A stretch of 64,000 nt of DNA, from assembly GCA_037441385.1 (NCBI GenBank), contig JBBISH010000020.1:98-64097 (forward strand), in the 5' to 3' direction. The DNA is from Myxococcales bacterium. Its GTDB lineage: Bacteria; Myxococcota_A; UBA9042. Under the pieces are notes generated by a model, which was not told the origin of the DNA, did no database searches, and saw only the letters and a list, made by a program, of their open reading frames with translations. A program made the translations under genes and the position numbers. Each line of letters opens with the position of its first letter. Within the stretch, counting starts at the first letter, position 1. Of this stretch, positions 5,801-61,614 are shown piece after piece.

Positions 5801-8800
5801 GGGTGGCACGAGACGCAGTCGGTATTGCCGCCCGATTCGCCGGGTTTGAAGCCGTCGGCGTGCGAGTGGCAGCCTACGCAGTTGCCGGCATAGTGCTGAC
5901 CGCCGTCGCTGCCGCCGCTGTTGCGGAAGCGCGCCGATCCGTCCGAATTCTTGGTCATGGTGTGGCACACTTCGCACACGCCGTTGCCCGGAGTCGTCAC
6001 GCCCGCGAAGCTGAAATCGGCTTTGCCGGTCAGGCTGCGGAAGTCCACGGCCTTGACCCCGCTGTTGGGCGTGGTGATCGACTCGCGCAGCAAGTAGATG
6101 TTCTTGGAGTCGTGGGTGTCGTGGCAGGTCCGGCACGTGAACGTTGCGCCCCAAGTGCCGTACTGGGTCGACGTGGTGCTGCTGTTGTGCAGTTTGACTT
6201 TGTGGCAGCCCGTGCAGGCCGTGTCGTCGTTGGTGCGGCGCAGCAGATTGCCGTCGCCGGCTCCACCAGGCGCGCCGTCGTGGGTCGCCGAATTCGAATC
6301 GGCGTAGTGCACGGCGTGGCAGGTCAAGCAAGCGACCTTGCCGGTCGTGTAGCTGGCGCTGCCCGCATTGTCGAGCACCAAGTTGTTGGTGGTGTTGCCG
6401 TCGTTGTCGATGCGATAGGTCACGCCCACGGCGATCGCGCTGGGGAGTGCCGCGGCCCAGGTGATCTGCGTGGCCGTGGCAGTGGCGATCAGGCGCGTGG
6501 TGTTCTTGTTGGCGCCGCTGGTGAAGCGCACCCACTTGCCGGCCAACCCGGTGAACGCGCCGGCGGTGTTGGTCAGCGAGGTGGTGGTACCCGCCGTGGC
6601 GGTGCCGCTCTTGGCGTCCATTTGCGCCGTGCCATCCGTGTCGACCGGCGTGGCGGCAAACAGCGGGCTGGTCGGGATCACCACGGACACCGGGTGACTT
6701 AGCTTGTTGCCCGTGTACGTGGTGGCGTCTTGGACATTGCGCACCGTGTGGCAGGCCACGCAGAGCTGCCCAGAGACCGTGTCCATGCGCAAGAAGTGCC
6801 GGCCCTGGCTGCCCGCCGCGGCTGGGGCAAACGGGTCGGCAGGCGTCTTGGTCTGCGAGTGTTGGTCGTGGCAACCCGAACAGAGCAGGGTAGTGCCGCC
6901 CGTGCCCAGGTGCTTGGCCACCGTGGGATCCGTGGGCGCACTGGCGCCAAACGCGGCGTTGTTCAACGCGGAATCCCAGCGGTGCGAAGTACCCGACACC
7001 CCTGGCACGGCCTGATCACTGCTGGACCAGTTCAGGCCCTTGAGCGAGTGGCAATTGAGGCACAAGTTCTGGTTCGACGCGTTGCTGGTCAGGTTGGCTC
7101 CCAACGTGTTGTGACCCACGTGGCAGTCCTCGCAGACATTGACCAGGTTGGCGGCGTTGTGCGGTGGGTCACTGGCGCGCGCGAGCGGGGGCAGCACCAA
7201 CGTCACGGCAACGGCGGGCAGCAGCCAAGCGGGGAGCCGGCGCCGCAGCAACACAACGGCCAGGATCGCCAAGATCAGCAGGGCCGGCATGCCCGCGCTC
7301 CCGCGCGTCTGGGCCGAGCAACCGCTGTCGCTGGGTGGCGCCGCGCTGACGCCCGGCTTGGGCGTGGACTTGCTGTCTGCGTCGGTTTGCAGCGCATCGG
7401 CCTGGCTATCCAGACCAACATCGGCCGCCTCGCTGTCTTGCCCCGTCGCCGAATCGTTGCCAGTCTGGGCATCGCTGGTGGCTTGGCTGTCGGCAGGGGC
7501 CTGGGCATCTCCGCCGATCTCAGCAGTGCTGGCGTCGCTGCCGCTCGCGTCGGCGTCGGGCGCTTCGCTGTCGCCAGCGCTATCGGCATCACTGGTGTCG
7601 CCGGCGACGGCGTCCGCGTTGCCCGCATCGCTCCCACTGGTTCCTGTAGCGTACATGCCGACTTGCAGCGGCGCCGAGCGCAGCTCGCCGTCGTCCACCC
7701 GTAGCTCGAACATGTACAGACCGGCCAGCGGTGGTGTCACGCTCAGCACTGCCGCGTGCGGATCAGACAGCGTGAGGCGCGGGCCGCTGATCTGGGTCCA
7801 AGTGTAGTTCACGCTCTTGCCGTCCGGGTCCCAGCTCGGCGTGCCGTCGAATTGAGTCGTCTCGCCCGCCGCGATCGTGCTGTCCAAATCGGCGACCTTG
7901 GCCAAGGGAACGGCATTGCCAAGCGGATCGTCGACCGTGATGGTCGCTCGCGCGCTGGCGCCAGCGCCCAGGGCCGACGCAGTCTGCAACTCAAAGACGT
8001 AGGTGCCGGGATCGATCGGCACAAAGCTGGTCTTGCAGTCGGCATTCTCGGCCATGGGTACATGGACGCCTTCGATCTGCTTCCAGGTGCAGGTGGGCTG
8101 GCTGCCGTCGGGTACGTAGCTCGCCGAACCGTCGAGTGCCACGGTTTCTGCTGTGTTTGCGGCAAGATGCGGTGTGAGCACCGCCCGCGCCGGACCCGAG
8201 GTGTCGCTGTCGACCAGGATCGTGGCGCGCGCGGCCGGGCTGTCCCACGTGCCGTCGTTGACGACGAGCTGGAATTCGTAGCGGCCGGCCTGGACTGGCG
8301 TGAACGTCACGGCCTTGGGGCCGGCGGCGGCCAAAGCGACCGGAGCGCCGGCAACCTGTTTCCAGCTGTACGTCAAGTTGGCGACCTCTAGGTCGCGGCT
8401 GGTTCCGCCGTCGAGCAGGACGCTTTGGCCGACTTGGCCGACCTCGGGCGCGACGATCGCGGCGACCGGCACCGTGTTGCCCACGTCGCCCACGACCACC
8501 GACGTTTGCACCGGCGCCGATGGCTGGCTGCCGTCGTTGGCCACTAGCTCAAAGGTATAGACACCAGCCTGGCTGGGCACAAACGACGGGCTGGCGGTCT
8601 CGCCGGCCGTCAGCGCGGCGCTCGCGCCCGACGTCTGCTTCCAGGTGTACGCAAGCGGCGACCCGTTGGCATCCCGGCTGAAGCGGGCGTCCAGGGTCAC
8701 TGCGGCACCGACCGCGGCGCTCAGCTCGGGGCCGGCATCCGCCGTGGGCGCAACGTTTTGCACGGCTACCGTGGCGCTAGTGGGGCCCTGGCTGATCTTG

Positions 8801-10866: not shown

Positions 10867-10970
10867 GGCGTACTCCAAGGGGTTCTTAGCCCCGTGGGAT
10901 TCGCCTGCTGGTGGTGTCACCCCCGGCTGGCGCCGGCACCATGCGCAGACTGGCCTGACGGCCGAACTTG

Positions 10971-10998
10971 ATCTTAAGAAGTGTGCATGGCCCGTCAA
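10971..10998 (-). promoter_or_regulatory. Candidate sigma70-type promoter for the giant cytochrome/ccs operon
   Basis: Minus strand TTGACG-N16-TAAGAT about 105 bp upstream of the ATG at 10866. Confidence 0.45.
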
Positions 10999-11222
10999 GC
11001 ACGAACCGTCGCACCGCGGTCCAACCTGTCACCGCAGTGTCGCCACGCTTCCGCAACTCGCGCCCCGCTTGTCGCCCGAGGCCGCAGGGCCTAACCTTCT
11101 GCCCAAGAGTCGCCCGGCACGCTGGGCGCCGCGTCTCGTCCCAAGGCCCTTGCCGTGATCGCACCTGCTCCACAAACCCTTCGCAGCTTCCCAGAAGTCG
11201 GCCGCGTCACCCAGAGGTCGGC

Positions 11223-12098
11223 ATGATCTGGGGTGCAAACGCCACCGCGCCAACCGGGAGTACTCCGTCCACGCCGCCGCACGGGTCGCCGTGGCTGGCC
11301 CGTACGCTGTGGGTGGCCGCGTCGGTGGCCTTGGCGCTGGCCCTGCGCACCTGGGTGATTGGCTCGGCGGTGGTGGTTTCCGAGTCCATGCGCCCCACGC
11401 TGGAAGTGGGCGACCACCTTTGGCTCGATCGAACGGCCTATGGCTTGTCTTGGCCCTGGAGCAGCGCGCATCTGCGTGAACTGCCGCGGCGTGGCGATGT
11501 GGTGGTGTTTCGCTACCCGTTCGACGACGGGTCAATGTACGTGGGCCGCCGCCTGATCAAGCGCGTAGTGGGGCTGCCCGGCGATCGCCTGCGCCTGCGC
11601 GACAACCGCTGGGAGCTCGGCGGCACGCCGACCGAACGCCGCGTGATCATTCCCCGCGAGCCCTGTGACGACGAGGGCGGGGCGATCTGCGAGCGCGCCG
11701 TCGAGGTTTTGGACGGACAGGCCTACACCACTTGGCGCCAAGTGCCGAGCGTGCCTGGGGAACGCCATAGCGACGACGGCTCGCTGGTCAATGCCAGCGC
11801 CTGGCCGCCCGGCATCTTCAACCCAACCCACGTCAAGCCCGCGGCGCGCGTCTACAGCCCGCCGCAGAACCGCGACTACCCCGAATTCGTCGTGCCGTCA
11901 GGCGTGGTGCTGTTGGTCGGCGACAACCGCGACGGCTCGCAGGACGGGCGCCACTTTGGTCTGGTCGAGCTGGACGCCATCGAGGGCCGGGCGCGCTGGG
12001 TGTGGGCGTCGCGGGTGCCGGGTGAGTGGCTGCCGCGCTGGGACCGAATTGGCCGCGCCACCGCCGAGCCAGCGGGTGCCGCGGATCGCCAGCCGTGA
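11223..12098 (+). CDS. lepB: Signal peptidase I (S26)
   Basis: Catalytic boxes SESMRPTLEVGD, LIKRVVGLPGD and GDNRDGSQDGR; single N-terminal TM; ATG 11223 preceded by AGAGG. Confidence 0.93.
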   Translation: MIWGANATAPTGSTPSTPPHGSPWLARTLWVAASVALALALRTWVIGSAVVVSESMRPTLEVGDHLWLDRTAYGLSWPWSSAHLRELPRRGDVVVFRYPFDDGSMYVGRRLIKRVVGLPGDRLRLRDNRWELGGTPTERRVIIPREPCDDEGGAICERAVEVLDGQAYTTWRQVPSVPGERHSDDGSLVNASAWPPGIFNPTHVKPAARVYSPPQNRDYPEFVVPSGVVLLVGDNRDGSQDGRHFGLVELDAIEGRARWVWASRVPGEWLPRWDRIGRATAEPAGAADRQP

Positions 12099-12121
12099 TC
12101 AAGGCCGGGCCGCCGCCGCCG

Positions 12122-13843
12122 CTATTCGATGAGCCCGAACTTCTTGAGCCGGTAGCGCAACAAGTCCCGGCTGACGCCCAGCAGCTTGGCGGCGCGCACT
12201 TGATTGCCCTCGCTGTATTCCATGGCGCGCTCTAGGGCCACGCGCTCCAGGTCGGCCAACGCCATCGATCCATCCAGGCGGAACACCACTTGCAGGGCAT
12301 CCTCGCCCGTCGCGGTCGCGTCTAGGTCATTGGGCATCGGCATGGGGCCGGGGGTCGGGTAGGTGGGCTGCGCCACCGTACCTCGGGCGGGCGGCTGGCC
12401 ATGACCTTCTGGAACGCCTGGGTGAAGGGCGGCAAAGGGGGCCAGGTGCGCGGTCGGCGTCGGGCTGACCGGCAACGCCACGGATTCGCCCGTGGCGGCG
12501 TGCTGGTGGGCCAACGACTGCAATTCGGGCGGCAGATGCAGGGGTTCGATGAAGTTCGACTCGCCGCACAGCGTGACGGCCGCCTCGATGGCGTATTTCA
12601 ACTCGCGGATATTGCCCGGCCACCAGTAGGTATTCAGAATTCGCCGCGCCGCCAAGGACAGGCCGTTGACGTGGGCACCCATCTCGCGGGTGTACGCCTT
12701 CAGCACATGGTCGGAGATCAGATCGATATCGGTCGGCCGCTCGCGCAGCGGCGGCAGACGCACCGCCAGCACCTTGAGTCGGTAGAACAGATCCTCGCGG
12801 AAGCGGCCTGCGGCGACCAACTCGGCCAGGTTCATGTGGCTGGCCGCCACGATGCGCACATCAGACTCCGCCTCGGTGTTCGAGCCCAGGCGGCGGTAGG
12901 TGTGCGTCTCGATGAAACGCAGCAGCTTGGCCTGCATGCCCAGCGGCATGTCGCCGATCTCGTCCAAAAACAGCGTGCCGCGGTTGGCACTTTCGATGAG
13001 GCCGACACGGGTCGAGCGGGCGTCGGTAAAGGCGCCGCGCTCGTGGCCCATCAGTTCACTTTCCAGCAGCGTCTCGGGCACGGATGCGCAGTTGATCTCG
13101 ACAAATGGACCGCCCGCACGGGCGCTCATCTGATGAAGTGCGCGCGCCGCCAAGCTTTTGCCGGTCCCGGTCTCGCCCGAGATGAGCACGGTCGAGCGCG
13201 GCGTGCGGGCAAAGCGCTGCAGGCTGTCCAGCACATTGAGCATGTGCGGATCCTGGCTGAGGATCCCGTGCTGACCCAGTTCGGCGTAGATAGTAGCGGG
13301 CTTGGGACTGGCGATGCGCGTGACGTTCAACCGCAGCAGCGCCTCGTGCAGGTCGTCGGCCGCGCACGGCTTGGTCAAGAAGTCGGCGGCCCCCAGTTTG
13401 GTGGCCTCGACGATGGTGGCCGGCTCGCCGATGGCGCTGACGACAATGACCGCTGGCCCGCCCGACGCGGGCAATTCGGCCAACAGGTCCAGGCCGCGGC
13501 CGTCGGGCAGGCGGATATCCAGCAAGATGACGTCGGGGTGGTGCTCTGCAATCGCCGCCCGTGCCTCGGCAAGCGAGGCCGCGCTGATGGCGTGGTAGCC
13601 CCAGCGGGTCAGGTCGCGGCAGGCGGCCCACGAAACCAGATGCTCGTCTTCGACGACGAGAACCACTGGTTGTCCAAGTTGTTTTGGTCGTTGCATGATT
13701 CCTGACCATGCTCCGCCTTGGCGGTTCGGCAGAACCAAGGGTGGCAGTGCCGAACTTGCGGCGTGGAGACTGGCACCCCGAGTGGCCGAGTTCCCCGAAG
13801 GGAGCGGCGATGTTTCTGGCTGATTGGAATACATAGCAGACAA
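12122..13843 (-). CDS. Sigma54-dependent response regulator (REC-AAA+-HTH, NtrC/AtoC family); true start may be further downstream
   Basis: Receiver (LVVEDE, LLDIRLPD, FLTKP), Walker A GETGTGKS, GAFTDA loop, LFLDEIG, WPGNIREL, C-terminal Fis-type HTH. Confidence 0.93.
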   Translation of the reverse strand: MSAMYSNQPETSPLPSGNSATRGASLHAASSALPPLVLPNRQGGAWSGIMQRPKQLGQPVVLVVEDEHLVSWAACRDLTRWGYHAISAASLAEARAAIAEHHPDVILLDIRLPDGRGLDLLAELPASGGPAVIVVSAIGEPATIVEATKLGAADFLTKPCAADDLHEALLRLNVTRIASPKPATIYAELGQHGILSQDPHMLNVLDSLQRFARTPRSTVLISGETGTGKSLAARALHQMSARAGGPFVEINCASVPETLLESELMGHERGAFTDARSTRVGLIESANRGTLFLDEIGDMPLGMQAKLLRFIETHTYRRLGSNTEAESDVRIVAASHMNLAELVAAGRFREDLFYRLKVLAVRLPPLRERPTDIDLISDHVLKAYTREMGAHVNGLSLAARRILNTYWWPGNIRELKYAIEAAVTLCGESNFIEPLHLPPELQSLAHQHAATGESVALPVSPTPTAHLAPFAALHPGVPEGHGQPPARGTVAQPTYPTPGPMPMPNDLDATATGEDALQVVFRLDGSMALADLERVALERAMEYSEGNQVRAAKLLGVSRDLLRYRLKKFGLIE

Positions 13844-14379
13844 CGGTGCAGCGAGAGTTTGTCGAATGGCCGCAGGAGAGGAAAGGCCGGGCCGCGGCTC
13901 CGCGCGGCGGGTTCACGTTTCTTCATATCAGGTTCACCAGAACGTCGCAAACAGCCTTTGCGTGGGCGAGACACGGCTGTGACCAACGCCGGGTGCGGCC
14001 GCCTGGTTGTCAAAATGACGCCACGTTGAGTGTGACAAGGCGATCACACTCAGGGAAGAATCTGAACAGTTCTCGGGCTATCCCGAGCGTTGTGCGGCTG
14101 TGCCACCGGTTGAGCGACCCGGTCCAGGGCGGCCGCAGGGGCCCGCAAAGCAAGTTGCATTTTGTTTGCAGTTCAACATGTTGAACCCGGTCGACGGACC
14201 CCCGGCGCACGCGCAAACTGCCGCAATCGCTGGCACTGTTTGGCGGCGCGCGGCGCGGCCGACAGCTTGACCGCGCAGGGCGGCGCCCAGAGACTGACCC
14301 CGCTGTCCCCGCCCATCGGCGGACAGTTCACGCTCCGGCGTCCGTCCCAGGCCGCCGCGACTGTCCCACGGAGGAGAAC

Positions 14380-15135
14380 ATGCCGATCAAGGTGGCCGCA
14401 CGCGCGCGCTGGCACAGGCACTGTTACCCGCAATGGCCGTGTGGCCTGCCCGGTCACCGGAACTGGCATTTGCTCAAGATTGCAGCGATCTTCCTGCTGG
14501 TGGCGAGTCAGTCGGCCTGCGGGGCCGCGCCGGTCGAGCGCAAGGGCGCCAGCACGCCAGAAGCCGCCGAGCGCGAGAGCTTGGCGTCGCGCCAAGAAGA
14601 GATCGTGCAAGACGGCGTCATCGAAAAGCTGGATCTCAATGGCGATCGCGTGCCGGATGTGGTGAAGCGCTACAAGCTGGTCGACGACCCGGCCGGCGAC
14701 GGCAAAGGCGGAGTCGTCAAGATCAAGGTGCTGGTGCGCAAAGACATCGACGTCAATTTCGATCGCAAGGCCGACATCGTAGAGGTCTACACCATCAGCG
14801 GCCTGCAGTCCGTCAAGGAGCGCGAAGAATTCGATCTAGACTTTGACGGGCGGGTCGACGAGATCCGCAAGTACAAGGGCGGCTATCCCGAAGAGATCGC
14901 CCAGGATCAAGACCGCGACGGCAAGATCGACACCTGGATGCAATACCAGCTGACCAAGAACGAAGACGGCAAGGACGTCAATCGGTTGATCGAGCGGCGG
15001 CGCGACCACAACGCCGATGGCCTGGTCGACGTGTGGGAGTACTACGTCAAGGGTGTGCTCCAGAAGATCGGTCGCGACGGCAACGGCGACGGCAAACCCG
15101 ACCAATTCACCCGGGTGGACGAGAAGCAGCGCTAG
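14380..15135 (+). CDS. Putative lipoprotein with repeated DxDxDG calcium-binding-like motifs
   Basis: GGAG RBS; lipobox-like QSAC; motifs DLNGDRVPD, DVNFDRKAD, DLDFDGRVD, DQDRDGKID, DHNADGLVD, DGNGDGKPD. Confidence 0.75.
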   Translation: MPIKVAARARWHRHCYPQWPCGLPGHRNWHLLKIAAIFLLVASQSACGAAPVERKGASTPEAAERESLASRQEEIVQDGVIEKLDLNGDRVPDVVKRYKLVDDPAGDGKGGVVKIKVLVRKDIDVNFDRKADIVEVYTISGLQSVKEREEFDLDFDGRVDEIRKYKGGYPEEIAQDQDRDGKIDTWMQYQLTKNEDGKDVNRLIERRRDHNADGLVDVWEYYVKGVLQKIGRDGNGDGKPDQFTRVDEKQR

Positions 15136-15170
15136 CCGGTCTGGCGCAGCCCTTCTGGTCCGGAGGCAAC

Positions 15171-16724
15171 ATGGCTCTGCGAATCTACGGAACACCGACC
15201 TGCCATGTCGAGCCCTTGGGCCGGCCCGTGCGCGTCATGCTCATCACGCCGCCCTACCACTCGGGCGTGGTGGAATCAGCGGGCGTTTGGATGCCCGTGG
15301 CCTTTGTCTACATCGCCGGCATGGTCCGCGCGCATGGCCACGAGGTCCGTATCTACGACGCCATGTCGTACTACCACGACTACGACCGGATCGAGGCGGA
15401 GATCCGCGATTTTGCACCTGATGTCATTGGTTTGACGGCGATCACCGCGTCGTCGCTCGCCTGCTTGAAGGTGTGCGCCATCGCCAAGCAAGTCAACCCG
15501 CAGATTCGCACCGTGATGGGCAACGCGCACTCGACGTTCTTGTGGCGCGAAATTCTTACAGAACACCCCGAGTGCGACTTTGTGGTGCGCGGCGAGGGCG
15601 AATTCACCATGGCCGAGCTGGCCGACACCCTGCGCGACGGCGGCGATTTGGCCACCATCTTGGGGCTGTCGCTGCGCATCGATGGGCAGCCTTGGGCCGC
15701 CAGCAAGCGGGCTCTGAATGCGGAGTTGGATAGTCTGCCGATGGCGTGGGACCTGATCGACTGGCCCATCTACACCTACCGGCCCCGGCCGGGCTCGCGG
15801 CTCGCGGTGGTGAGCTCGTCGCGCGGTTGTGAGGAAGCCTGCAGCTTCTGCTCGCAACAGCTGTACTGGGGGCGGACGTGGCGCGGGCACAGCCCCAAGC
15901 ACTTTGTAGACGAGCTGCAGATGCTCAAAGAGCGTTTTGGCGTCAGCATCGTCATGCTGGCCGACGAGACGCCCACCATGGACCCCGACCGCTGGCACGC
16001 GCTGCTGGACGAGCTGATCGCCCGCGATTTGAACATGGAACTGCTGATGGAGACGCGCGTGGACCACATCCTGCGCGACGAAGACCAGCTGCACCGCTAC
16101 AAGCAGGCCGGGATCAGCCACATCTACGTGGGGGTCGAGGCCACCGACCAAGTCACGCTGGACGTATTTACCAAGAATATTGGCGTGGAGCAGTCGCGGC
16201 AGGCCATCGCTGCGATCAACCGCCACGGCATGGTGTCTGAGACGTCGTTTGTCCTGGGCATGCCCGACGAGACGCCCGAGCACATGGCGGCCACGGTGGC
16301 GCTGGCCAAGCACTACGCGCCGGACCTTGCGTTCTTCTTGGCCATCACGCCATGGCCCTATGCGCAGTTGTACCCCAAATTGAAAGACCATTTGGTCGGG
16401 TTGGATTTCTCGCACTACAACTTGGTCGAGCCCGTCATCAAGCCCGACGCGATGACCTTGGAAGAAGTCACCAAGGGCCTGAATCAAGCGGCCCACCAGT
16501 TCTATGCCGACAAACTGCGTCGGCTGCACGAACTGCCGGTCGAGAAGCGGGCCTTCTTGGTCAAGGTCATGAAGATCTTGAGCAATCACTCGTACCTTGC
16601 CGATCACATGCAGGGGATCCACGCCGAAATGCCGGCCCATGTGCAACAGGCAATGGCCGCCATCGAAGCCGACATCGAAGCCGACATCGAAGCCAACAAC
16701 GCGGCGGATCAGGCGCGCCACTAG
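15171..16724 (+). CDS. Cobalamin-binding radical SAM enzyme (BchE-like / class B methyltransferase family)
   Basis: GGAGG RBS before ATG 15171; N-terminal B12-binding domain (PDVIGLTAIT, VVRGEGE); SSRGCEEACSFC = CX3CX2C. Confidence 0.9.
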   Translation: MALRIYGTPTCHVEPLGRPVRVMLITPPYHSGVVESAGVWMPVAFVYIAGMVRAHGHEVRIYDAMSYYHDYDRIEAEIRDFAPDVIGLTAITASSLACLKVCAIAKQVNPQIRTVMGNAHSTFLWREILTEHPECDFVVRGEGEFTMAELADTLRDGGDLATILGLSLRIDGQPWAASKRALNAELDSLPMAWDLIDWPIYTYRPRPGSRLAVVSSSRGCEEACSFCSQQLYWGRTWRGHSPKHFVDELQMLKERFGVSIVMLADETPTMDPDRWHALLDELIARDLNMELLMETRVDHILRDEDQLHRYKQAGISHIYVGVEATDQVTLDVFTKNIGVEQSRQAIAAINRHGMVSETSFVLGMPDETPEHMAATVALAKHYAPDLAFFLAITPWPYAQLYPKLKDHLVGLDFSHYNLVEPVIKPDAMTLEEVTKGLNQAAHQFYADKLRRLHELPVEKRAFLVKVMKILSNHSYLADHMQGIHAEMPAHVQQAMAAIEADIEADIEANNAADQARH

Positions 16725-40293: not shown

Positions 40294-40878
40294 ATGTCCA
40301 AGCCTCAGAACAGCCTGGCTGCCCCCGGCGGTGGCGCCGTCGTCGCGGCGCGAACCGTTGGCGTTGCGGGCAAAGCCATGGGATGGGCTGTTGTTTCACT
40401 GAGTTTCGCGACACTCTCGACCGGTTGCGTCGTCGAAAACGAGCCCCGCTCGTGGGCCAAAGTCGATCGCCAGGTCTTCGAATGCGCCGTGCAGCCGATC
40501 TTCTCGCGCGAGTGCTCGATGCCGGCCTGCCATGGCAGCCCGGCGCGACGGCTGAAGGTTTTGTCGCCCGGCCGGATGCGCCTGCCGGCCGAGTTGAGCA
40601 AAGCCTTGGCCGCGCAATCCGCCGACGATCGCGAGGCCGGCAACCATCCTGCCCTGACAAGTATCGAATTGGACTACAACTTTGTGCAAGCGCGCAGCAT
40701 GATCGCACCCGACCAGCCGCTGGCCGATTGCCCGCTGCTGAACCGCCCCCTCGCGGTGGCCGCTGGCGGCATGTACCACGTCCAGGGCGGCGATATCTTT
40801 ACCAATACTGCCGACGCTGACTACCTGACCCTGCAGGCGTGGATCCAAGGCCTGGGCAAGGAGCAGTTGTGCAAGTAG
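40294..40878 (+). CDS. Lipoprotein with cytochrome c-like CX4CH motif
   Basis: Lipobox STGC; VQPIFSRECSMPACHG; LLNRPL, HVQGG, YLTLQAWI pattern typical of myxobacterial monoheme-like domains. Confidence 0.7.
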   Translation: MSKPQNSLAAPGGGAVVAARTVGVAGKAMGWAVVSLSFATLSTGCVVENEPRSWAKVDRQVFECAVQPIFSRECSMPACHGSPARRLKVLSPGRMRLPAELSKALAAQSADDREAGNHPALTSIELDYNFVQARSMIAPDQPLADCPLLNRPLAVAAGGMYHVQGGDIFTNTADADYLTLQAWIQGLGKEQLCK

Positions 40879-40953
40879 GAAGAGTGCAAGTAGGAAGAGT
40901 GCAAGTAGGAAGTGTGCAAGTAGGAGGTATGCAAGTAGCAGCCGTGCAAGTAG
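40869..40953 (+). repeat. Six tandem 15-bp units (GTGCAAGTAGGAAGA consensus) at a gene junction
   Basis: Units start at 40869, 40884, 40899, 40914, 40929, 40944 and degenerate rightwards. Confidence 0.92.
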
Positions 40954-41909
40954 CCGCGGCTGCACGCCGTTTGGAGCTCCGTCCTGGGCTGGCGCTGCTT
41001 GCGCTGGCGGCGGCGACTCCGCTGCTGGTGGGTTTTTCGGCCACGGCCGCGTTCGAGACCAGCGCGGACTTGGGCGGCGGCGGCGGAATGTCGTTTACAG
41101 GTTCGCCGGTTTCGCACGGCTTGACGTGCGCCACCTGCCACCAAGGGCCGGCGCCCACCGGTGGCGTGGGCTTGGCCAGTGATCCCCCCGGCTTGTTCAG
41201 CAAAGGCTTTCAGCGGGGCGCGCTGTACCGCGTCACGGTGCGCCTGTCTCCCGAGCGCAAGGGCTTGGATCGCAACGGCAAGTGCACAGGTCACCTGGGT
41301 GGCTGCAACCGCAACGCCTTTGTGGCCGAGTTCCTGGTCGACAACGGTCTGCCGGCCGGGCAACTCTGCACAGACACTGGCGTCCTTTCGCAAAGCGGCT
41401 GTGACAACGAATCCGGCAAAGAGACCACGCTTTTCAGCTACGCCCGCGCGGTGGGCGGCATCTCGATGAAGGATCCCGAGCTGTGCGGCGCGGGAGTCAC
41501 CAGCAACTGCTTGGATTTGACAGGCATGTCCGACGAGCAGGCCGCAGCCGCGATCGGCGCAGCCGTAACGGCCCGGACCAACTGGACGTTTCAGTGGCGC
41601 GCCCCCAGTGCCAGCGTGCCGGTGCAATTCTGGCTTGGTCTGGTGGACGGCGATGGCGGCACCAAGGTCACCACGGATCACAACGACTACTTCGGCGACG
41701 ATACCTACCTGATTTCGCGAACTTTGTGGCCAGAGGGCCAGGAGCCACCAGCGGCTGCGACGGGCTGTGGGGCCGCGCGCGTGCCCATGCCGGGCCTTGG
41801 GCTGGTCGGTCTCTGGACGGGTCTTGGGCTTTGGCTGTGGCGCCGCAAAGCCGACGCAAGCTGCATCCGCCGCGCTAGCGACCGGGCAAAGGGGAGTCCG
41901 ACATGCTGA
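40929..41909 (+). CDS. Secreted Reeler-like (choice-of-anchor V-like) protein with one CXXCH and a C-terminal MYXO-CTERM-like anchor; start ambiguous within the repeat
   Basis: FTGSP...TCATCH, WTFQWRAP, DGDG; ends TGCGAARVPMPGLGLVGLWTGLGLWLWRRK. Confidence 0.75.
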   Translation: MQVAAVQVAAAARRLELRPGLALLALAAATPLLVGFSATAAFETSADLGGGGGMSFTGSPVSHGLTCATCHQGPAPTGGVGLASDPPGLFSKGFQRGALYRVTVRLSPERKGLDRNGKCTGHLGGCNRNAFVAEFLVDNGLPAGQLCTDTGVLSQSGCDNESGKETTLFSYARAVGGISMKDPELCGAGVTSNCLDLTGMSDEQAAAAIGAAVTARTNWTFQWRAPSASVPVQFWLGLVDGDGGTKVTTDHNDYFGDDTYLISRTLWPEGQEPPAAATGCGAARVPMPGLGLVGLWTGLGLWLWRRKADASCIRRASDRAKGSPTC

Positions 41910-43129
41910 ATTCCAAGAGCGCGGACAATTCCAAGAACACGCAAAAGGGCAACCGGTGGATCGGCTTGGCATTCCTTGGCGTTGCCAGCGTCTTGGGTTC
42001 GGGCACGGCCTTTGCCGCCACCACGTCGTGCGACATCGTCACCGGCGCGTCGTGCTGGAAGGGCGAAGGCTGCGATTGCGACCACGACGGCTACGTCATT
42101 TCGTCGGGCAAGGCCAGCAAGTATTGCCACTTTGACAAGTGCCCGATCGACGCCAACGACAAGGACGCCAAGGTCTTGGGCAAACCCTCGACCTACAACG
42201 CCGACGGCGACGGTTGGACCAAGAACTACGACTGCGACGACAACGATCCCTGCATCGGCAAGACCTGCGGCGAAAACACCTGCCCGGCTCCAGACCCCGA
42301 CAACGACAAAGACGGCTCGCCGGCCAGCAAGGACTGCAACGACAACGACCCCAACATCAAACCGGGCAGCGGCATTGCCTGCTGCGACTGCAACGTGTTG
42401 GCCGACCCGGCCAAGGTCGCCACCTTGGGCTGCAAGGGTTGTCCGCTGAGCGCTCCACCGCCCGACGCGGGCGCCACCGATGCTGGAAGTGCTGATGCTG
42501 GCTCGACAAGTCCCGACACCGCCGCGCCAGATACCGCTGCCCCGGATGTGGCTCCGCCGGACACCTCCGCGCCAGACACCTCCGCGCCAGACACTTCTGC
42601 GCCGGACACCGGTGCGCCCGACACGTTCAGCCCCGACCCCACTCAGTCCGACGCAGGCAACACGCCGCAACCCGATGCGGGCAATGGGCAATCCGGTGCC
42701 GACGCCTCGGCCCGCCAAGGCAACGGCGGGGCAATCCTGAGCGACGCTGGCGCGGTGACCGGCAATCCCAACGAGCTATACGTGGGTGGCGGGACCCTGG
42801 TAACCGGCGATCCACCCGCTCCGGGCTGCGCAGCTGGCCCCGCGGCAGCGGGTAACTCGGGTTGGTTGGGACTGATTTTGCTGAGCCTGCTGGCGCTGCG
42901 CCGGGTCGGTCGCCGCCACGGCACGCTCCTTGCTTTGGCGGTTCTGGGTGCGCTCGCGCTGAACTCGTGCGCCACGGTTCAACCCTGGCAGCGGCAGACA
43001 CTGGCGCATCGCTGCATGATCCTGGGGCGCAACGCGGGCGAGCAGACGTTGGAACAACACGCCTTTCAGTACCGCGAAGGCGCGGCGGGTGGCTTTGGCG
43101 GTGGCGGCGGAGGTTGCGGTTGCAACTGA
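41903..43129 (+). CDS. Fusion: Cys-rich MopE-like repeats, PDTSA linker, internal MYXO-CTERM, lipoprotein signal and DUF4266-type domain
   Basis: Signal peptide AFA; DCDDNDP / DCNDNDPNIKPG; PGCAAG...WLGLILLSLLALRR; LNSC-ATVQPWQRQTLA...REGAAGGFGGGGGGCGCN-stop. Confidence 0.85.
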   Translation: MLNSKSADNSKNTQKGNRWIGLAFLGVASVLGSGTAFAATTSCDIVTGASCWKGEGCDCDHDGYVISSGKASKYCHFDKCPIDANDKDAKVLGKPSTYNADGDGWTKNYDCDDNDPCIGKTCGENTCPAPDPDNDKDGSPASKDCNDNDPNIKPGSGIACCDCNVLADPAKVATLGCKGCPLSAPPPDAGATDAGSADAGSTSPDTAAPDTAAPDVAPPDTSAPDTSAPDTSAPDTGAPDTFSPDPTQSDAGNTPQPDAGNGQSGADASARQGNGGAILSDAGAVTGNPNELYVGGGTLVTGDPPAPGCAAGPAAAGNSGWLGLILLSLLALRRVGRRHGTLLALAVLGALALNSCATVQPWQRQTLAHRCMILGRNAGEQTLEQHAFQYREGAAGGFGGGGGGCGCN

Positions 43130-43264
43130 TACCAGTTCCGTCCGAATCGGATCGAAAACTCGGGCAATTCTCAAGGCCCGAACCGGGGTCCCCGCCTGAT
43201 TCTCGCCAGTTGCAAAACGGGTCAGAGGAAGGGTATAGGCGTGAATCAGGTGGGGTGCGTATGA
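43127..43264 (+). repeat. Full-length copy of repeat family A filling the intergenic space
   Basis: TGATACCAGTTCCGTCCGAATCGG...GAATCAGGTGGGGTGCGTATGA; closely similar to 61457-61594 and reverse 46874-47013. Confidence 0.9.
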
Positions 43265-44964
43265 ACCGGGCGACCTGGGCCGCGCGCCGCACCCACCTCT
43301 TTGCAAGGCCGGGTACGCTCTGGCTTTTTTTGGCGGTATGGGTCTTGGCGTGCTCGTGGGTCCTGCCGGCGATGGCGGCGCCGCAGCGCGTGGTGGTCTT
43401 GCCCCTGTTTCGCGGTGTGGGCATCACGGTGGCTCAGGCCAGCCAGTTGCAAGACGCACTGACGGTCGAGTTGATCAGCCACACCGACGCCGCAACCGTG
43501 GCGCTGGACAGACTGGATACCGGCAAGAAGGCCAAGCTGGTCGCGGCTTTGACTGCGCTCGGTCAACCCATGGGCCCGGCCAGTGTGCCGGTGCTGACCG
43601 GGTTGGCCCGCGCGACGGGGGCAACGCGGCTGCTGGTGGCGCGGGTCGACGCGGTCCGGGGCGGCGGGCGGATCTTGCTGGCCAGTGTGGGCAGCGAAGA
43701 CAGTCAGGTGACCCAGGCGGCCGAGGCACGGTGGTCGGGCGAATACCAGAGCCCGCCCGCCAACTTGCAAGATGCCGTGCAGCAATGGGCCGCCACGCGC
43801 GGCACTGGGGCTGCGGTGACGGCTGCCCAGTGGCCCGCCGGGGCTGTGCCCGCCGACGCAGCAGAACCAGGCGACACGCCTGCAGAACCGGCTGCCGAAG
43901 TCACGTTCGAGCCCACCCCCGCGCCACCCGAGGCCAGCGCGCCGCCCACGCCGATGGGTGTCACCGCCGAGACGCGCACCAACTACTATTCGGACAACGA
44001 CGGCAACCGCATCGTCACCCCCACGGTCACGGCGTCGGGCAGCATCGGCGAGCATGTCGCCATTGCCGGACACGCCGCACTGGACATGATGACCTGCGCA
44101 TCGGTCGACGTGATCAGTGCCGCGACCTCGCGCGGATACTTCAAAGAAAATCGCCAAGAATACGGTGGTTCCATGACCTTGAAGCGCGAGCAGCTGGGCT
44201 TGACCCTGGGCGCGGTGCACTCGCGAGAAAACGACTACTCGTCGGCCACCGGCTCGATCGCGCTGGTCGACGAATTCGCCAAGCGCAATGCCACGGTATC
44301 GCTGGCCTACAGCTTCACTGGTTCCAACGTGGGCCGCGCCCACGACCCGAATTTCTCGCGCCGCTTGGACAGCCACGCCCTGACCCTCAGCTACACCCAG
44401 GTGTTGGGCAAAGAGTGGGTGGGCCAGCTGTCCGGCTTTGTGGGCGTGCTGGATGGCTTTCAGTCCAGCGTGTATCGGTTCGTGCACTTTGCCAACGGCA
44501 CGGCAGGACCCGAGGTGGCGCCCGATTTCCGCCTGCGCGAGGCCGTGGCCGTGGAAGTCCGCGGCGCCTTGGCCGCCAGTTGGTTCTTGGCCAGCACTTA
44601 TCGTATCTACACCGACTCGTGGGGCGTCTTGTCGCATACCGGCGAAGTCGCAGTAACTTGGGCGCCTTTGGACTGGCTCAGCGTGCGCGTCCGCGACCGC
44701 GCCTACACCCAGCGCGGCTCGACCTTCTACAAAAGCGTCTACACTCAGCCGATGCGCTACATGACCATCGACCGCGAGCTGGGCGACATGCACGGCAACT
44801 TGGTGGGCGCCAAGATCGCCTTTGATTTGGGCAGCCCGGCGCGCACCACCGCGTGGCAGTTCGACCTGAAGTACGATTGGATGTGGCAACATTTCGACGA
44901 TTTTCCCTGGCTGACCGATCGCTACATGGCGATGGTCGAGGCGGGGCTTGGCTGTTCGTTCTAG
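43261..44964 (+). CDS. DUF3570-type outer-membrane protein with extra N-terminal alpha/beta domain
   Basis: YYSDNDG, SVDVISAATS, SRENDYSS, SYTQVL, YRIYTDSWGVLSHT, DRELG; terminal Phe; lies between DUF4266 and TlpA/ApbE. Confidence 0.8.
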   Translation: MNRATWAARRTHLFARPGTLWLFLAVWVLACSWVLPAMAAPQRVVVLPLFRGVGITVAQASQLQDALTVELISHTDAATVALDRLDTGKKAKLVAALTALGQPMGPASVPVLTGLARATGATRLLVARVDAVRGGGRILLASVGSEDSQVTQAAEARWSGEYQSPPANLQDAVQQWAATRGTGAAVTAAQWPAGAVPADAAEPGDTPAEPAAEVTFEPTPAPPEASAPPTPMGVTAETRTNYYSDNDGNRIVTPTVTASGSIGEHVAIAGHAALDMMTCASVDVISAATSRGYFKENRQEYGGSMTLKREQLGLTLGAVHSRENDYSSATGSIALVDEFAKRNATVSLAYSFTGSNVGRAHDPNFSRRLDSHALTLSYTQVLGKEWVGQLSGFVGVLDGFQSSVYRFVHFANGTAGPEVAPDFRLREAVAVEVRGALAASWFLASTYRIYTDSWGVLSHTGEVAVTWAPLDWLSVRVRDRAYTQRGSTFYKSVYTQPMRYMTIDRELGDMHGNLVGAKIAFDLGSPARTTAWQFDLKYDWMWQHFDDFPWLTDRYMAMVEAGLGCSF

Positions 44965-45039
44965 TTGAATGGCCGCGGGCATGGCGCGTTTGCTATGGCG
45001 GCGCTGCGCCGCGGACCGACGGCGATAGAGGAGACAACG

Positions 45040-45570
45040 ATGGTGACGACCCTGGTTTCGACCGTGACGTTGCTGTGGGCCTTGTGGGCGCCGGTTGGCG
45101 ACGCGACGACCCATCTGCAAGCGATGGCCACGCCCACGGTGGGGCAGAATGCGCCGGAAATTCGCGGCAAGTTGATGAGCGGTGCCGAATTCGACCTGGC
45201 CAAGAAGCGCGGCGAGGTGGTGCTCGTCGACTTTTGGGCCACCTGGTGCGAGCCGTGCAAGCTGAGCCTGCCGCGCTACGGCGCGCTCGAGAAGAAGCTG
45301 GCCAGCAAGGGCTTTTCGATCCTGACCGTCAGCGTGGACGAGGACGCGGACGCGCTCAAGCGCTTTATCGCGGCGACCAAGCTGGCGCTGGCCGTGCTGC
45401 ACGACGGCGATGCGAAAATCGTCGAGCGCTACGCACCGCCCAAGATGCCCACCGCCTACTTGATCGGTCGCGACGGCAAAATCGCCTGGACGCACGAGAG
45501 CTTTGTGCCGGGTGACGAGGCCAAGGTCGAGGCGGCGGCGCTTCAGGCGCTGAGCAAGGCTGCGCCGTGA
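45040..45570 (+). CDS. TlpA/ResA-family thioredoxin-like disulfide reductase
   Basis: VVLVDFWATWCEPC, cis-Pro loop KMPTAYLIGRDG; GAGGAG RBS. Confidence 0.92.
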   Translation: MVTTLVSTVTLLWALWAPVGDATTHLQAMATPTVGQNAPEIRGKLMSGAEFDLAKKRGEVVLVDFWATWCEPCKLSLPRYGALEKKLASKGFSILTVSVDEDADALKRFIAATKLALAVLHDGDAKIVERYAPPKMPTAYLIGRDGKIAWTHESFVPGDEAKVEAAALQALSKAAP

Positions 45571-46622
45571 ATAGCAGCCTGCGCCAGTTGACCACGACCC
45601 TGCTGGCCGCCGCGCTCTTCAGCTTCCATGTCCACGTTTTGGCCGACGAGCCCAAGCCGGCGTGTCCGGGGCTGGTCCGCTTCGAGGGGCCGGCCATGGG
45701 GTCGTCGCTGCGGGTCGCGGTGTGTCCGCTCCAAGCCACGCCAGCTGGCGAAGCGGCGGCCAAGGCGGCCATCGGCGAAGTGCAGGCCGAGTTCGACCGC
45801 TTGGAGAAGCTGTGGTCTACCTGGGTGCCGACCAGCGACCTGGCGCGGTTGAATGCGGCGGCGGGCAAGCCCGTGGCGATTGCACCCGAAACCATGGCGC
45901 TTTTGCAGCGGGCCCTGCAGGGCAGCAAGCAGACCGGCGGTCTGTTCGACGTGACGTTTGCGCCGCTGGGCGAGCTATGGAAGTTCGACACGCCGCCGGG
46001 CAGCCACGAGCCGACCCGCCTGAAGCAATTGCCCAGCGCGGAGGCCGTGCAAGAGCGCTTGAAGCACGTGGGGTATCGCAACTTGCTGCTCGACCCCAAG
46101 AAGGGCACGGCGCAGCTGCGCGACCCGGCCGCGGCGGTGCATGTGGGCGGCATTGGCAAAGGCGCGGCGGTCGATCGGGCCGTTGCATTGTTGAAGGGCA
46201 AAGGGTTTTCGCAATTTGCCGTGCAGGCCGGCGGCGATCTCTATCTCGCAGGGCAAAATGGTCAGCGGCCGTGGCGGGTCGGCATCGCTCACCCACGCAA
46301 GCCCGGAGAAATCCTGGGGATGGTCCAGATCCACGACGCGGCGTTTTCGACCTCGGGCGACTACGAGCGCTATGCCATCCTGGACGGCAAGCGCTATCAC
46401 CACATCGTCGACCCGCGCAATGGTTGGCCAGCTATGGCGAGTCAAAGCGCGACGGTGCGCGCCAAGTCCGCGACCGACGCCGAGATTTTGACCAAGGCCA
46501 TCTTCATCTTGGGCGGCGAGGCCGGTGTGCGCCTGGCCGAAAAGATGGGCGCGCAGGCCGTGGTGGTCGACGCGAATGGGCAAGTCGTCAAGTCGGCTGG
46601 GATCCTGCTCGAAGGGCCGTAG
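45567..46622 (+). CDS. apbE: FAD:protein FMN transferase
   Basis: AMGS, SDLARLN, GLFDVT, GGIGKGAAVD, AGGDL, PWRVGI, STSGDYERY, RYHHIVDPRNG. Confidence 0.95.
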   Translation: MNSSLRQLTTTLLAAALFSFHVHVLADEPKPACPGLVRFEGPAMGSSLRVAVCPLQATPAGEAAAKAAIGEVQAEFDRLEKLWSTWVPTSDLARLNAAAGKPVAIAPETMALLQRALQGSKQTGGLFDVTFAPLGELWKFDTPPGSHEPTRLKQLPSAEAVQERLKHVGYRNLLLDPKKGTAQLRDPAAAVHVGGIGKGAAVDRAVALLKGKGFSQFAVQAGGDLYLAGQNGQRPWRVGIAHPRKPGEILGMVQIHDAAFSTSGDYERYAILDGKRYHHIVDPRNGWPAMASQSATVRAKSATDAEILTKAIFILGGEAGVRLAEKMGAQAVVVDANGQVVKSAGILLEGP

Positions 46623-46873: not shown

Positions 46874-47013
46874 TCTTGTACGAACCCCGTCTGATTCGCG
46901 CGTGTACGGTTCCGCTGACCTGGTCTGCAACCGGCGAGAATCAGGCGGGGACCTCGATTCGGGCCCGAAGAATTGCCGAAGTTTTCGAGCCGATTTGGAC
47001 GGAACTGGTATCA
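46874..47013 (-). repeat. Full-length copy of repeat family A, inverted
   Basis: Reverse complement begins TGATACCAGTTCCGTCCAAATCGGCTCGAAAAC and ends GAATCAGACGGGGTTCGTACAAGA. Confidence 0.9.
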
Positions 47014-61456: not shown

Positions 61457-61614
61457 CAATACCAATTCCGTCCGAATCGGATCGAAAGCTCGGGCAACTC
61501 TTCGGGCCCGAACCGGGGTCCCCGCCTGATTCTTGCCAGTTGCAGAACGGGTCAGAAAGGCCGTACAAGCGCGAATCAGATGGGGTGCGTATGAGACATC
61601 GGTCAGGCTGTATA
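61457..61614 (+). repeat. Full-length copy of repeat family A followed by the family B end motif
   Basis: Aligns with 43127-43264; followed by GACATCGGTCAGGCTGTATA, also at 51166-51185. Confidence 0.9.

Follow-up and report, generated by a model that had tools for sequence, protein, structure and literature searches.

The closest described precedents for the gene treated here come from work on sorting tags of the MYXO-CTERM type and on gene clusters with DUF4266 proteins. In the accessible part of their study, Guo, Haft and Wall (mBio 2025, PMC11980579) state that internal MYXO-CTERM motifs are rare in open reading frames (ORFs) and describe MXAN_5598, in which an adhesin, a tag and an outer-membrane barrel with OmpA follow one another; they regard it as having probably arisen by the joining of two genes, with processing of its N-terminal part, and work cited there indicates that sorting tags function when placed internally. 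The same part of the text reports that MrtX of Myxococcus xanthus cleaves MYXO-CTERM proteins in dependence on the tag cysteine, and treats the enzyme that lipidates this cysteine as an open question with Lgt as lead candidate (PMC11980579). Clusters of ApbE, DUF3570, thioredoxin-like and DUF4266 genes figure in the available sections of Meheust et al. (2021, bioRxiv 10.1101/2021.01.07.425746, also eLife e66878), and the available sections of a preprint by Haft (2023, bioRxiv 10.1101/2023.06.07.544157) note that JDVT-CTERM proteins adjoin DUF4266, DUF3570 and TlpA genes in a few Pseudomonadota, where they are read as partners. Here we analyse an ORF of a Myxococcales bacterium (assembly GCA_037441385.1) in which a Cys-rich protein, an internal MYXO-CTERM-like tag, a lipoprotein-type signal and DUF4266 are joined in one frame. 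It lies in a window of 64,000 nucleotides (nt), bases 98-64097 of contig C20 (JBBISH010000020.1), in a source genome of 6.6 Mb, 221 contigs and 90.9% completeness. A first reading of the window from its letters alone, hereafter the original prediction, had proposed that the junction is a processing hinge; internal MYXO-CTERM tags are already in print, and the idea is less new than that reading assumed.

The ORF (41903-43129, plus strand) is open throughout in translation and encodes 408 amino acids (aa) plus a stop; it has its own Shine-Dalgarno-like AAGGGGAG and an ATG at 41903, and its start overlaps the stop of the upstream gene by 7 nt. From the N to the C terminus the precursor comprises a Sec signal with a probable signal-peptidase-I site after A-F-A, a Cys-rich domain (N-domain), a linker, the MYXO-CTERM-like tag, the lipoprotein-type signal and DUF4266. 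The hinge noticed at 42824-42970 was confirmed and corresponds exactly to residues G308-C356 of this frame, and the complete DUF4266 domain expected behind it was borne out, as Pfam family PF14086 matched at 65.9 bits (cut-off 27) over its whole profile (1-50 of 50) at aa 359-408, with the C-terminal CXC motif in place (C405, C407 and N408 are invariant in an alignment of 29 sequences). Within the hinge, the tripartite MYXO-CTERM build is present, namely the invariant C309, a helix at 319-335 and the Arg cluster RRVGRR, and the spacing from the tag Cys to the dibasic pair is 23, which equals the median of the 29 terminal tags in the source genome. The tag is not C-terminal and leaves 70 residues after its basic cluster (R338 to N408). 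Behind the basic loop R333-R338 come a hydrophobic run of 13 residues and L-N-S-C356, and the two elements have the basic cluster in common, which forms the tag's tail as well as the n-region of the signal. The latter, of lipoprotein type, starts at residue 333 of 408 and not at the N terminus of the precursor.

We favour, with a probability of roughly 0.55, the reading that this ORF encodes an envelope polyprotein whose hairpin precursor would be cut at both sites. The N-terminal signal would export the Cys-rich domain across the inner membrane via Sec; the MYXO-CTERM helix would halt transfer, with the Arg-rich loop R333-R338 remaining cytoplasmic under the positive-inside rule; and the short hydrophobic segment would re-enter the membrane as a signal peptide, carrying DUF4266 to the periplasmic side. 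The product would be a two-helix hairpin with one Cys at each periplasmic end, a topology that we infer from the order of the signals. Lgt and LspA would then lipidate and cut at Cys356, freeing DUF4266 as a lipoprotein that could reach the outer membrane and sit within the barrel of the neighbouring DUF3570 protein, while a CPBP protease of the myxosortase family would cut after the modified Cys309 and free the Cys-rich domain for surface display. A hairpin of about 46 residues would be thrown away, and the single basic loop would have acted as tag tail and signal n-region together. The original prediction had foreseen one of these cuts, the putative cleavage at Cys356 by signal peptidase II; its reading is supported for the architecture and the recurrence of the hinge, and plausible for the predicted cleavage.

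The junction reflects a real, old and conserved gene fusion. When the whole protein served as query, a stop-free fused frame was found in seven of 30 relatives, four from the same genus (G001, G002, G005, G009), two from two other genera of the family (G016, G017) and one from another family (G020); the remaining relatives matched via stand-alone DUF4266 genes or low-complexity stretches only. In a large protein collection, 34 of 41 homologue clusters carry DUF4266, these 34 sequences being 41-70% identical, and the hinge recurs in all of them, which speaks against chance, with a loop of variable length and the frame kept in every case. Among 14 N-domain loci in GTDB species genomes, a set that overlaps the seven fused relatives, 12 are fused, one is cut by a contig end and one (L032) contains a run of N, so that its frame cannot be followed. 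In two clusters and one locus (P0032, P0037, L024) the precursor is triple, the CxxCH protein encoded upstream being joined in frame as well, via a tag and a signal of the signal-peptidase-I type. As to the source of the 14 loci, most are labelled Myxococcota, Myxococcales or Deltaproteobacteria; L023, L032, L033 and L024 are labelled otherwise despite a Myxococcota-type locus (three as 'uncultured Enterobacteriaceae', one as 'Pseudomonadota') and are probably mislabelled bins.

Sequencing runs agree with the assembly. Over 41900-43155 the window is identical to a 12.6-kb Logan contig of run X1 (possibly the source sample), with neither a difference nor a gap; contigs of run X2, which is another sample from that study, likewise show 0 differences over 42661-42811 and 42894-43093; and no indel within 42824-42970 is listed for the Logan contigs of these runs. 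Runs X3 and X4 are uninformative on the hinge, since what they contain is limited to the intergenic repeat or, at about 91% identity, the N-domain of a relative. Among the sequencing runs listed as carrying this DNA, none derives from RNA. The number of contigs and the completeness of the assembly could be taken to favour an artefact of assembly or sequencing, or else the recent joining of two genes by an inactivating read-through. We give this explanation next to no credence, as the in-frame hinge occurs in 34 clusters from several sources, with the frame kept despite variable loops, and in 12 genome loci, and the contigs of two samples agree with the window; the fusion is thus neither unique to the assembly nor unsupported by reads.

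Constraint on the hinge is seen at both of its cysteines. When 29 of the 34 fused clusters are aligned, C309 and C356 are invariant (29/29). Across all 34, the tag Cys is separated from the first basic residue by a median of 23.5 aa (range 19-35), the basic loop spans 3-20 residues (median 7) with two to seven Arg/Lys, and the last basic residue precedes the lipobox Cys by 10-21 aa (median 16); by hand count, the last of these distances is 11-17 aa in seven stand-alone DUF4266 signals. Lipobox position -1 is small in 34/34 (Gly in 26, Ser in five, Ala in three), position -2 is Ser, Gly, Ala, Val or Thr in 32/34, and P-x-P-G-C is retained in 25 of the 34 clusters (hand count). The invariant Cys356, the small residue at -1 and the matching spans argue that the internal signal is a true lipoprotein signal. 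The residue after the lipobox Cys is Ala in the window, Ala, Val, Thr or Ser in the 34 clusters and Gln in P0043, and Asp or Lys never stands directly after this Cys in the clusters compared. Under the lipoprotein sorting rules of Escherichia coli and Myxococcus, the residue after Cys356 would fit sorting to the outer membrane.

The hinge could alternatively contain an internal translation start, with DUF4266 made separately from an in-frame start codon and the ORF being in effect two overlapping genes. In favour of this, an ATG at the start of the loop would give a normal lipoprotein signal in two fused relatives (L006/L025 and L011/L033). Such a start is not conserved, however, as only two of 13 distinct fused hinges have an in-frame ATG within the loop. 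The loop of the window has neither ATG nor GTG; the sole candidate there is a TTG in the first helix, 12 residues ahead of the last basic one, and in two fused loci a start codon near the loop is absent altogether; DUF4266 would therefore be made within the long chain. Moreover, with no stop codon between the halves the long product is made anyway, and we regard an internal start as very unlikely.

Both halves also occur as separate modules. Unfused homologues of the N-domain end at the tag: P0033 stops directly after the Arg run, and P0036, P0038, P0039, P0040 and P0042 have a variant terminal tag of Cys, helix and basic tail. Such endings indicate that the internal tag of the precursor is a true sorting tag. 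The N-domain family is small, with ten representatives at the 50% cluster level that cover most of the profile, seven of them fused, and 58 of its columns are invariant across eight sequences, 12 of these being Cys. Searches of the N-domain against Pfam and NCBIfam at E≤1 returned one chance-level Pfam match only, its profile gave a chance-level match only against solved structures (E 0.85), and PF11617 (Cu-binding_MopE) had no match to the window protein at E≤1. Because five of six distant profile matches that were checked carry PF11617 repeats, the second half of the N-domain appears to resemble, as a distant relative, the metal-binding repeats of MopE type, a likeness for which an Atlas score of 0.88 is a lead only. 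On two short, lower-GC metagenome contigs (L035, L036), ApbE and a TlpA-like gene flank an unfused N-domain gene, and the N-domain is therefore a member of the same system also without the fusion. The Cys-rich protein of these contigs has about 255 residues and a different C-terminal tag (Trp-x-Cys, helix, Lys/Arg tail), and the TlpA-like protein has an extra C-terminal membrane region; DUF4266 is not visible on the two contigs, which are short. That DUF4266 proteins are normally small stand-alone lipoproteins holds in this organism too, as the source genome has two further small DUF4266 genes with N-terminal lipobox signals of their own. By the comparison that MXAN_5598 suggests, tag-ended unfused N-domain genes and stand-alone DUF4266 genes both exist; an adjacent pair of them was not found among the genome and metagenome loci compared.

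The same arrangement recurs in the genome with other partners. A scan with the MYXO-CTERM model TIGR03901 at E≤1 gave 46 hits, 22 of which pass the cut-off of the model, and 37 with the Cys motif were kept. The nine that were dropped (C79:28896, C61, C23, C112, C3, C42, C1, C67:12190 and C18) are partial, out of frame or without the Cys motif. Twenty-nine of the 37 Cys-bearing tags are terminal, with a median of seven residues after the first dibasic pair, and the other eight have more than 60 residues behind them. One of the eight, C4:84232, was rejected as a hinge, the sequence after its tag lacking a signal-like segment; its tail looks like read-through into non-coding DNA and seems to resemble the intergenic repeat in translation. 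The genome-wide count of internal tags directly followed by a signal-like segment is seven among the 37 Cys-bearing tags (36 without C4) in this one genome, including the hinge of ORF 2818-11028 in the window, which is probably the first hinge to which the original prediction had likened the present one. This ORF has 2736 codons for PKD/NHL/TSP3 domains, a tag of 16.6 bits, a signal and a multihaem cytochrome part of about 1470 residues. Cys-to-dibasic spacing is 22-26 in the seven hinges and 14-27 in the terminal tags, and the domain content on the two sides of the hinges is unrelated from case to case.

Several of these fusions are conserved. In a comparison of five sister hinges with relatives, four recur in several of them and the fifth in one, and for two the split state occurs in other genomes. 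The C58 hinge is spanned by one match in 18/18 relatives of its own family and in 2/2 genomes of a second family; 14 of the own-family matches are stop-free, and four, which reach into the untranslated 5' part of the query, have one or two stops somewhere along the match. In 10/10 genomes of other families each part has an open frame of its own, the gap being mostly about 300-400 nt (30 nt in G019). Matches span the C164 hinge in 16 genomes from the family and in a single one from outside, and the C98 hinge in seven genomes, with the C-terminal part alone in four. The C99 type is fused in G005, occurs as two adjacent frames in G013 and is represented by the N-terminal part only in three others; ORF 2818-11028 was found in a single relative, G007, where it is likewise fused. 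At the C99-type junction of G013, a terminal MYXO-CTERM and a stop are followed by a lipoprotein gene that has a separate start Met and lipobox, and at the junctions in G020, G024 and G028 the barrel gene has its own Met and an Ala-x-Ala type site. To judge from their sequences, these split-state junctions show the expected ancestor.

The suggestion that such hinges reflect a general strategy of the lineage and not an accident is therefore supported by seven hinges, several of them conserved across the family, with split states elsewhere. As sister hinges precede outer-membrane barrels, which would be unworkable if tied to the inner membrane, the second signal appears to be cut there; given barrel fusions kept family-wide, internal signals after tags in this lineage must, as far as sequence comparison can tell, be cut. 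Such fusions would arise repeatedly because both topogenic signals work after the loss of a stop codon and a spacer. We tentatively extend this to the proposal, to which we give somewhat less than even odds, that the family routinely builds polyproteins by joining a tag and a signal via a shared Arg loop. In the lipobox form, with mirror-image Cys sites at the two periplasmic ends, each precursor would deliver two lipid-anchored products, one with a C-terminal and one with an N-terminal Cys, in a 1:1 ratio to outer-membrane partners. The same Lgt might act on both Cys sites. In the present case the partners would be a DUF4266 plug in a flavinylated DUF3570 barrel and a Cys-rich, possibly metal-binding, surface protein.

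The gene neighbourhood (Table 1) bears on this assignment. A DUF3570 gene adjoins each of the three DUF4266 genes found in a Pfam scan of the genome, and we propose that both halves of the precursor belong to one extracytoplasmic redox system of ApbE, DUF3570, thioredoxin and DUF4266. The DUF3570 protein has 17 predicted strands between residues 232 and 566 and a C-terminal Phe. A complex model of DUF4266 (aa 356-408) with DUF3570 (aa 225-567) scored 0.74 (runs at 0.73, 0.74 and 0.77; best control 0.02), a type of score whose mark is reached by 116 of 157 solved complexes and two of 215 mismatched pairs, this calibration being only rough here because the alignments, with 6 and 29 rows, were our own. 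At least 68% of the contacts recur between runs, and the predicted local distance difference test (pLDDT) of the partner is 66-67. On many strands of DUF3570 every second residue contacts DUF4266, and this alternation places DUF4266 in the barrel lumen. The model thus supports binding of DUF4266 inside the DUF3570 barrel without showing it, and a DUF4266 so placed must leave the inner membrane. A description of DUF4266 and DUF3570 as a plug-and-barrel pair was not found in papers mentioning these families.

The spacer between the stop of the precursor and the start of the DUF3570 gene (43130-43262) is a high-copy repeat of about 133 nt. It gave 322 blastn high-scoring segment pairs on 139 contigs of its own genome, 260 of them of at least 100 nt and seven in the window (for example 61460-61592 and, on the minus strand, 46879-47010). 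The depth of the Logan contig at the repeat is 10,765-16,677, against 10.7 in the flanks.

Table 1. Parts of the precursor, neighbouring genes and tag-then-signal hinges of the source genome. Coordinates are those of the window unless a contig (C) is given; for hinges they delimit the ORF that contains the hinge.
Feature	Coordinates	Strand	Type of second signal	Evidence and remarks
N-terminal Sec signal peptide, aa 1-38	41903..42016	+		From translation; helix 17-31 in model
Cys-rich N-domain, aa 39-186	42017..42460	+		Without Pfam or NCBIfam family
Low-complexity Pro/Asp/Thr/Ala-rich linker, aa 187-307	42461..42823	+		Translation; pLDDT <50
Internal MYXO-CTERM-like tag, aa 308-338	42824..42916	+		G-C309, hydrophobic helix, basic cluster R333-R338
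Lipoprotein-type signal, aa 333-356	42899..42970	+		h-region T341-L353, lipobox L-N-S-C356
DUF4266, predicted mature form, aa 356-408	42968..43126	+		PF14086; conserved C-G-C-N end
CxxCH protein upstream, tag-like C terminus	40839..41909	+		Weak choice-of-anchor V match, 30 bits (cut-off 42)
DUF3570 protein, predicted beta-barrel partner of DUF4266	43261..44964	+		PF12094, 86.1 bits
TlpA/ResA-like thioredoxin	44965..45570	+		
ApbE flavin transferase	45567..46622	+		PF02424, 259.2 bits
Hinge of the precursor	C20, window 41903-43129		Lipobox	
Hinge	C187:562-4224		Lipobox	
Hinge	C98:16609-19632		Lipobox	Cys-rich repeats upstream; SGL-type propeller downstream
Hinge	C99:16481-19729		Lipobox	MXAN_6640-type HExxH protein upstream; 540-residue lipoprotein downstream
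Hinge	C164:7624-11304		Signal peptidase I	TSP3/CglD-like adhesin upstream; weak TraB-like barrel match downstream
Hinge	C58:18150-20252		Signal peptidase I	MXAN_2561-family MYXO-CTERM protein, then MXAN_2562-family outer-membrane barrel (221 bits)
Hinge 7237-7326 of window ORF	2818-11028 (C20:2915-11125)	-	Signal peptidase I	PKD/NHL, then multihaem cytochrome

The enzymes that processing at both sites would call on have candidates in the genome. LspA (78.1 bits, cut-off 73.95) and Lgt (171.9 bits, cut-off 118.9) are encoded, and a CPBP protein (the L019 ORF) passes the myxosortase core model NF040914 Mrt_core with 105.5 bits (cut-off 100). The term 'internal lipobox' was not found in the collection of papers searched.

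A number of observations nevertheless weigh against a double cut. The TIGR03901 match to the tag (aa 308-334) scores 16.5 bits (E 0.0081), or 19.2 bits in the genome scan, and does not reach the cut-off of 20. The lipobox of the window has Asn at position -2, as the only one among the 34 clusters, and at position -3 Ala, Ser, Gly or Thr is commoner in these clusters than Leu or Val. The AlphaFold model of the precursor has a mean pLDDT of 54; its helices at 319-335 and 340-353, which form the hairpin, reach 63-71, and DUF4266 and most of the N-domain stay below 50. Being poor, the model supports the hairpin weakly and says nothing on intramolecular docking. The AlphaFold model of DUF3570 (mean pLDDT 47.5, six-row alignment) is too poor for a fold search, and an outer-membrane location is predicted for this protein on the strength of its all-beta pattern and C-terminal Phe. 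The myxosortase candidate falls below the equivalog cut-offs of MrtP (168 against 250), MrtC and MrtX (86 against 180). A split ancestor of this fusion, with the two halves encoded by neighbouring genes in the same order, was not seen in the 14 genome loci or in four metagenome loci on short contigs. Finally, we know of no demonstration that LspA accepts a signal lacking a free N terminus.

Two simpler fates of the precursor have to be weighed in this light. The hairpin could stay uncut, the whole chain being a bitopic-hairpin protein of the inner membrane that tethers the Cys-rich domain and DUF4266 in the periplasm, with tag and lipobox as relics. The low score of the tag under its hidden Markov model and the Asn at -2 would suit this explanation, and fusion alone would co-localise two partners of one redox system. 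Relics should decay, yet at 41-70% identity both hinge cysteines remain invariant and position -1 small throughout; moreover, DUF4266 is modelled in a Phe-ended beta-barrel, which it would be unable to reach if tethered in the inner membrane, and the sister hinges of the same genome precede outer-membrane barrels that need release. We consider an uncut hairpin unlikely, albeit the least unlikely of the alternatives.

Next in order, and likewise improbable in our estimation, comes a single cut, as the original prediction had worded it, in which LspA would free a lipidated DUF4266 and the Cys-rich domain would stay anchored in the inner membrane by the leftover hairpin. All evidence for a cut at the lipobox applies equally here, the tag scores under the 22 genome hits that pass the cut-off, and the myxosortase candidate is not an MrtX equivalog. 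Against this stand the retention of P-x-P-G-C in most clusters, with the spacing of terminal tags, and the use of a terminal tag by unfused homologues. In addition, cleavage in M. xanthus needs just the tag Cys and MrtX, and processing of an internal tag has been proposed, according to the accessible text of PMC11980579. We retain cleavage at both sites as the preferred reading.

The hairpin offers a natural substrate for asking which enzyme lipidates the MYXO-CTERM Cys, as it has both a tag Cys and, 47 residues away in the same chain, a lipobox Cys. If the double-cut reading is true, internal signals of natural bacterial polyproteins are substrates of LspA and signal peptidase I, and loss of the stop codon between a tagged protein and a secreted neighbour is tolerated and recurrent. 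Such ORFs would then stand for two proteins each, and localisation predictors that consider only the termini would miss both signals, which matters for annotation. The fusion also ties an uncharacterised Cys-rich sorted protein to the redox system of ApbE, DUF3570, thioredoxin and DUF4266, and together with the plug-in-barrel model it would give this system its first testable architecture.

Compared with described systems, the precursor is most like MXAN_5598 in having a mid-ORF MYXO-CTERM tag between N-terminal surface and C-terminal envelope domains. MXAN_5598 is, in the accessible text, a single rare case with an outer-membrane beta-barrel and OmpA downstream, whereas the precursor studied here carries the lipoprotein DUF4266 and a second hinge Cys; that text makes no mention of a signal peptide or lipobox directly after the tag. 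Here, one genome was found to have seven such hinges, with conservation throughout the family and split states in other genomes. The clusters of Meheust et al. share the neighbourhood of the same four families, but in the available sections DUF4266 has a small gene to itself, and there is no description of a fusion, of a sorting-tag protein or of DUF4266 within a barrel. With the JDVT-CTERM system the locus has in common a Cys-bearing, CPBP-processed C-terminal tag protein beside DUF4266, DUF3570 and TlpA; according to the sections of the preprint at hand, that system differs in having separate genes, a different tag processed by MrtJ and another phylum as host. Homology to JDVT-CTERM proteins was not found in the N-domain searches, in which those proteins were not tested directly, and the words internal, fusion, fused, polyprotein and lipobox are absent from the Haft preprint. 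In the literature on DUF4266, DUF3570 and MYXO-CTERM, as represented by main texts (supplementary tables may list cases) and partial sources, we did not find a mirrored lipobox hinge with two Cys, a DUF4266 fusion, a shared basic loop, a comparable hinge frequency, repeated fusions with split states or a DUF4266-in-DUF3570 model.

More distant parallels concern single elements of the proposal. The modelled position of DUF4266 in DUF3570 recalls the plug-and-barrel pair LptD/LptE, in which the lumen of an outer-membrane barrel accommodates a small lipoprotein; the two pairs are unrelated in sequence, and the arrangement described here is purely a model. Polyproteins that are cleaved at signal peptides within the chain are represented by the structural polyprotein of flaviviruses and the Bradyrhizobium FbcH precursor of cytochromes b and c1, and an archaeal ArtA substrate with a central tripartite signal was, to go by its title, reportedly the subject of work by Abdul Halim in 2017. 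The likeness to these cases lies in the second helix of a hairpin serving as the signal of the next domain, or in a sorting signal that is not C-terminal; none of them joins a C-terminal-type tag and a lipoprotein signal that share one basic loop. Nearer to hand are the M. xanthus pairs TraA/TraB and MXAN_2561/MXAN_2562, in which a MYXO-CTERM surface protein is followed by an outer-membrane barrel partner. Two of the hinges in the present genome are in-frame fusions of such pairs, one of NF045522 with NF040596 and the other of a CglD/TSP3-like with a weakly TraB-like protein; in M. xanthus, to judge from the family names and the accessible part of PMC11980579, the members of these pairs are encoded by separate or overlapping genes, whereas here each pair forms one ORF.

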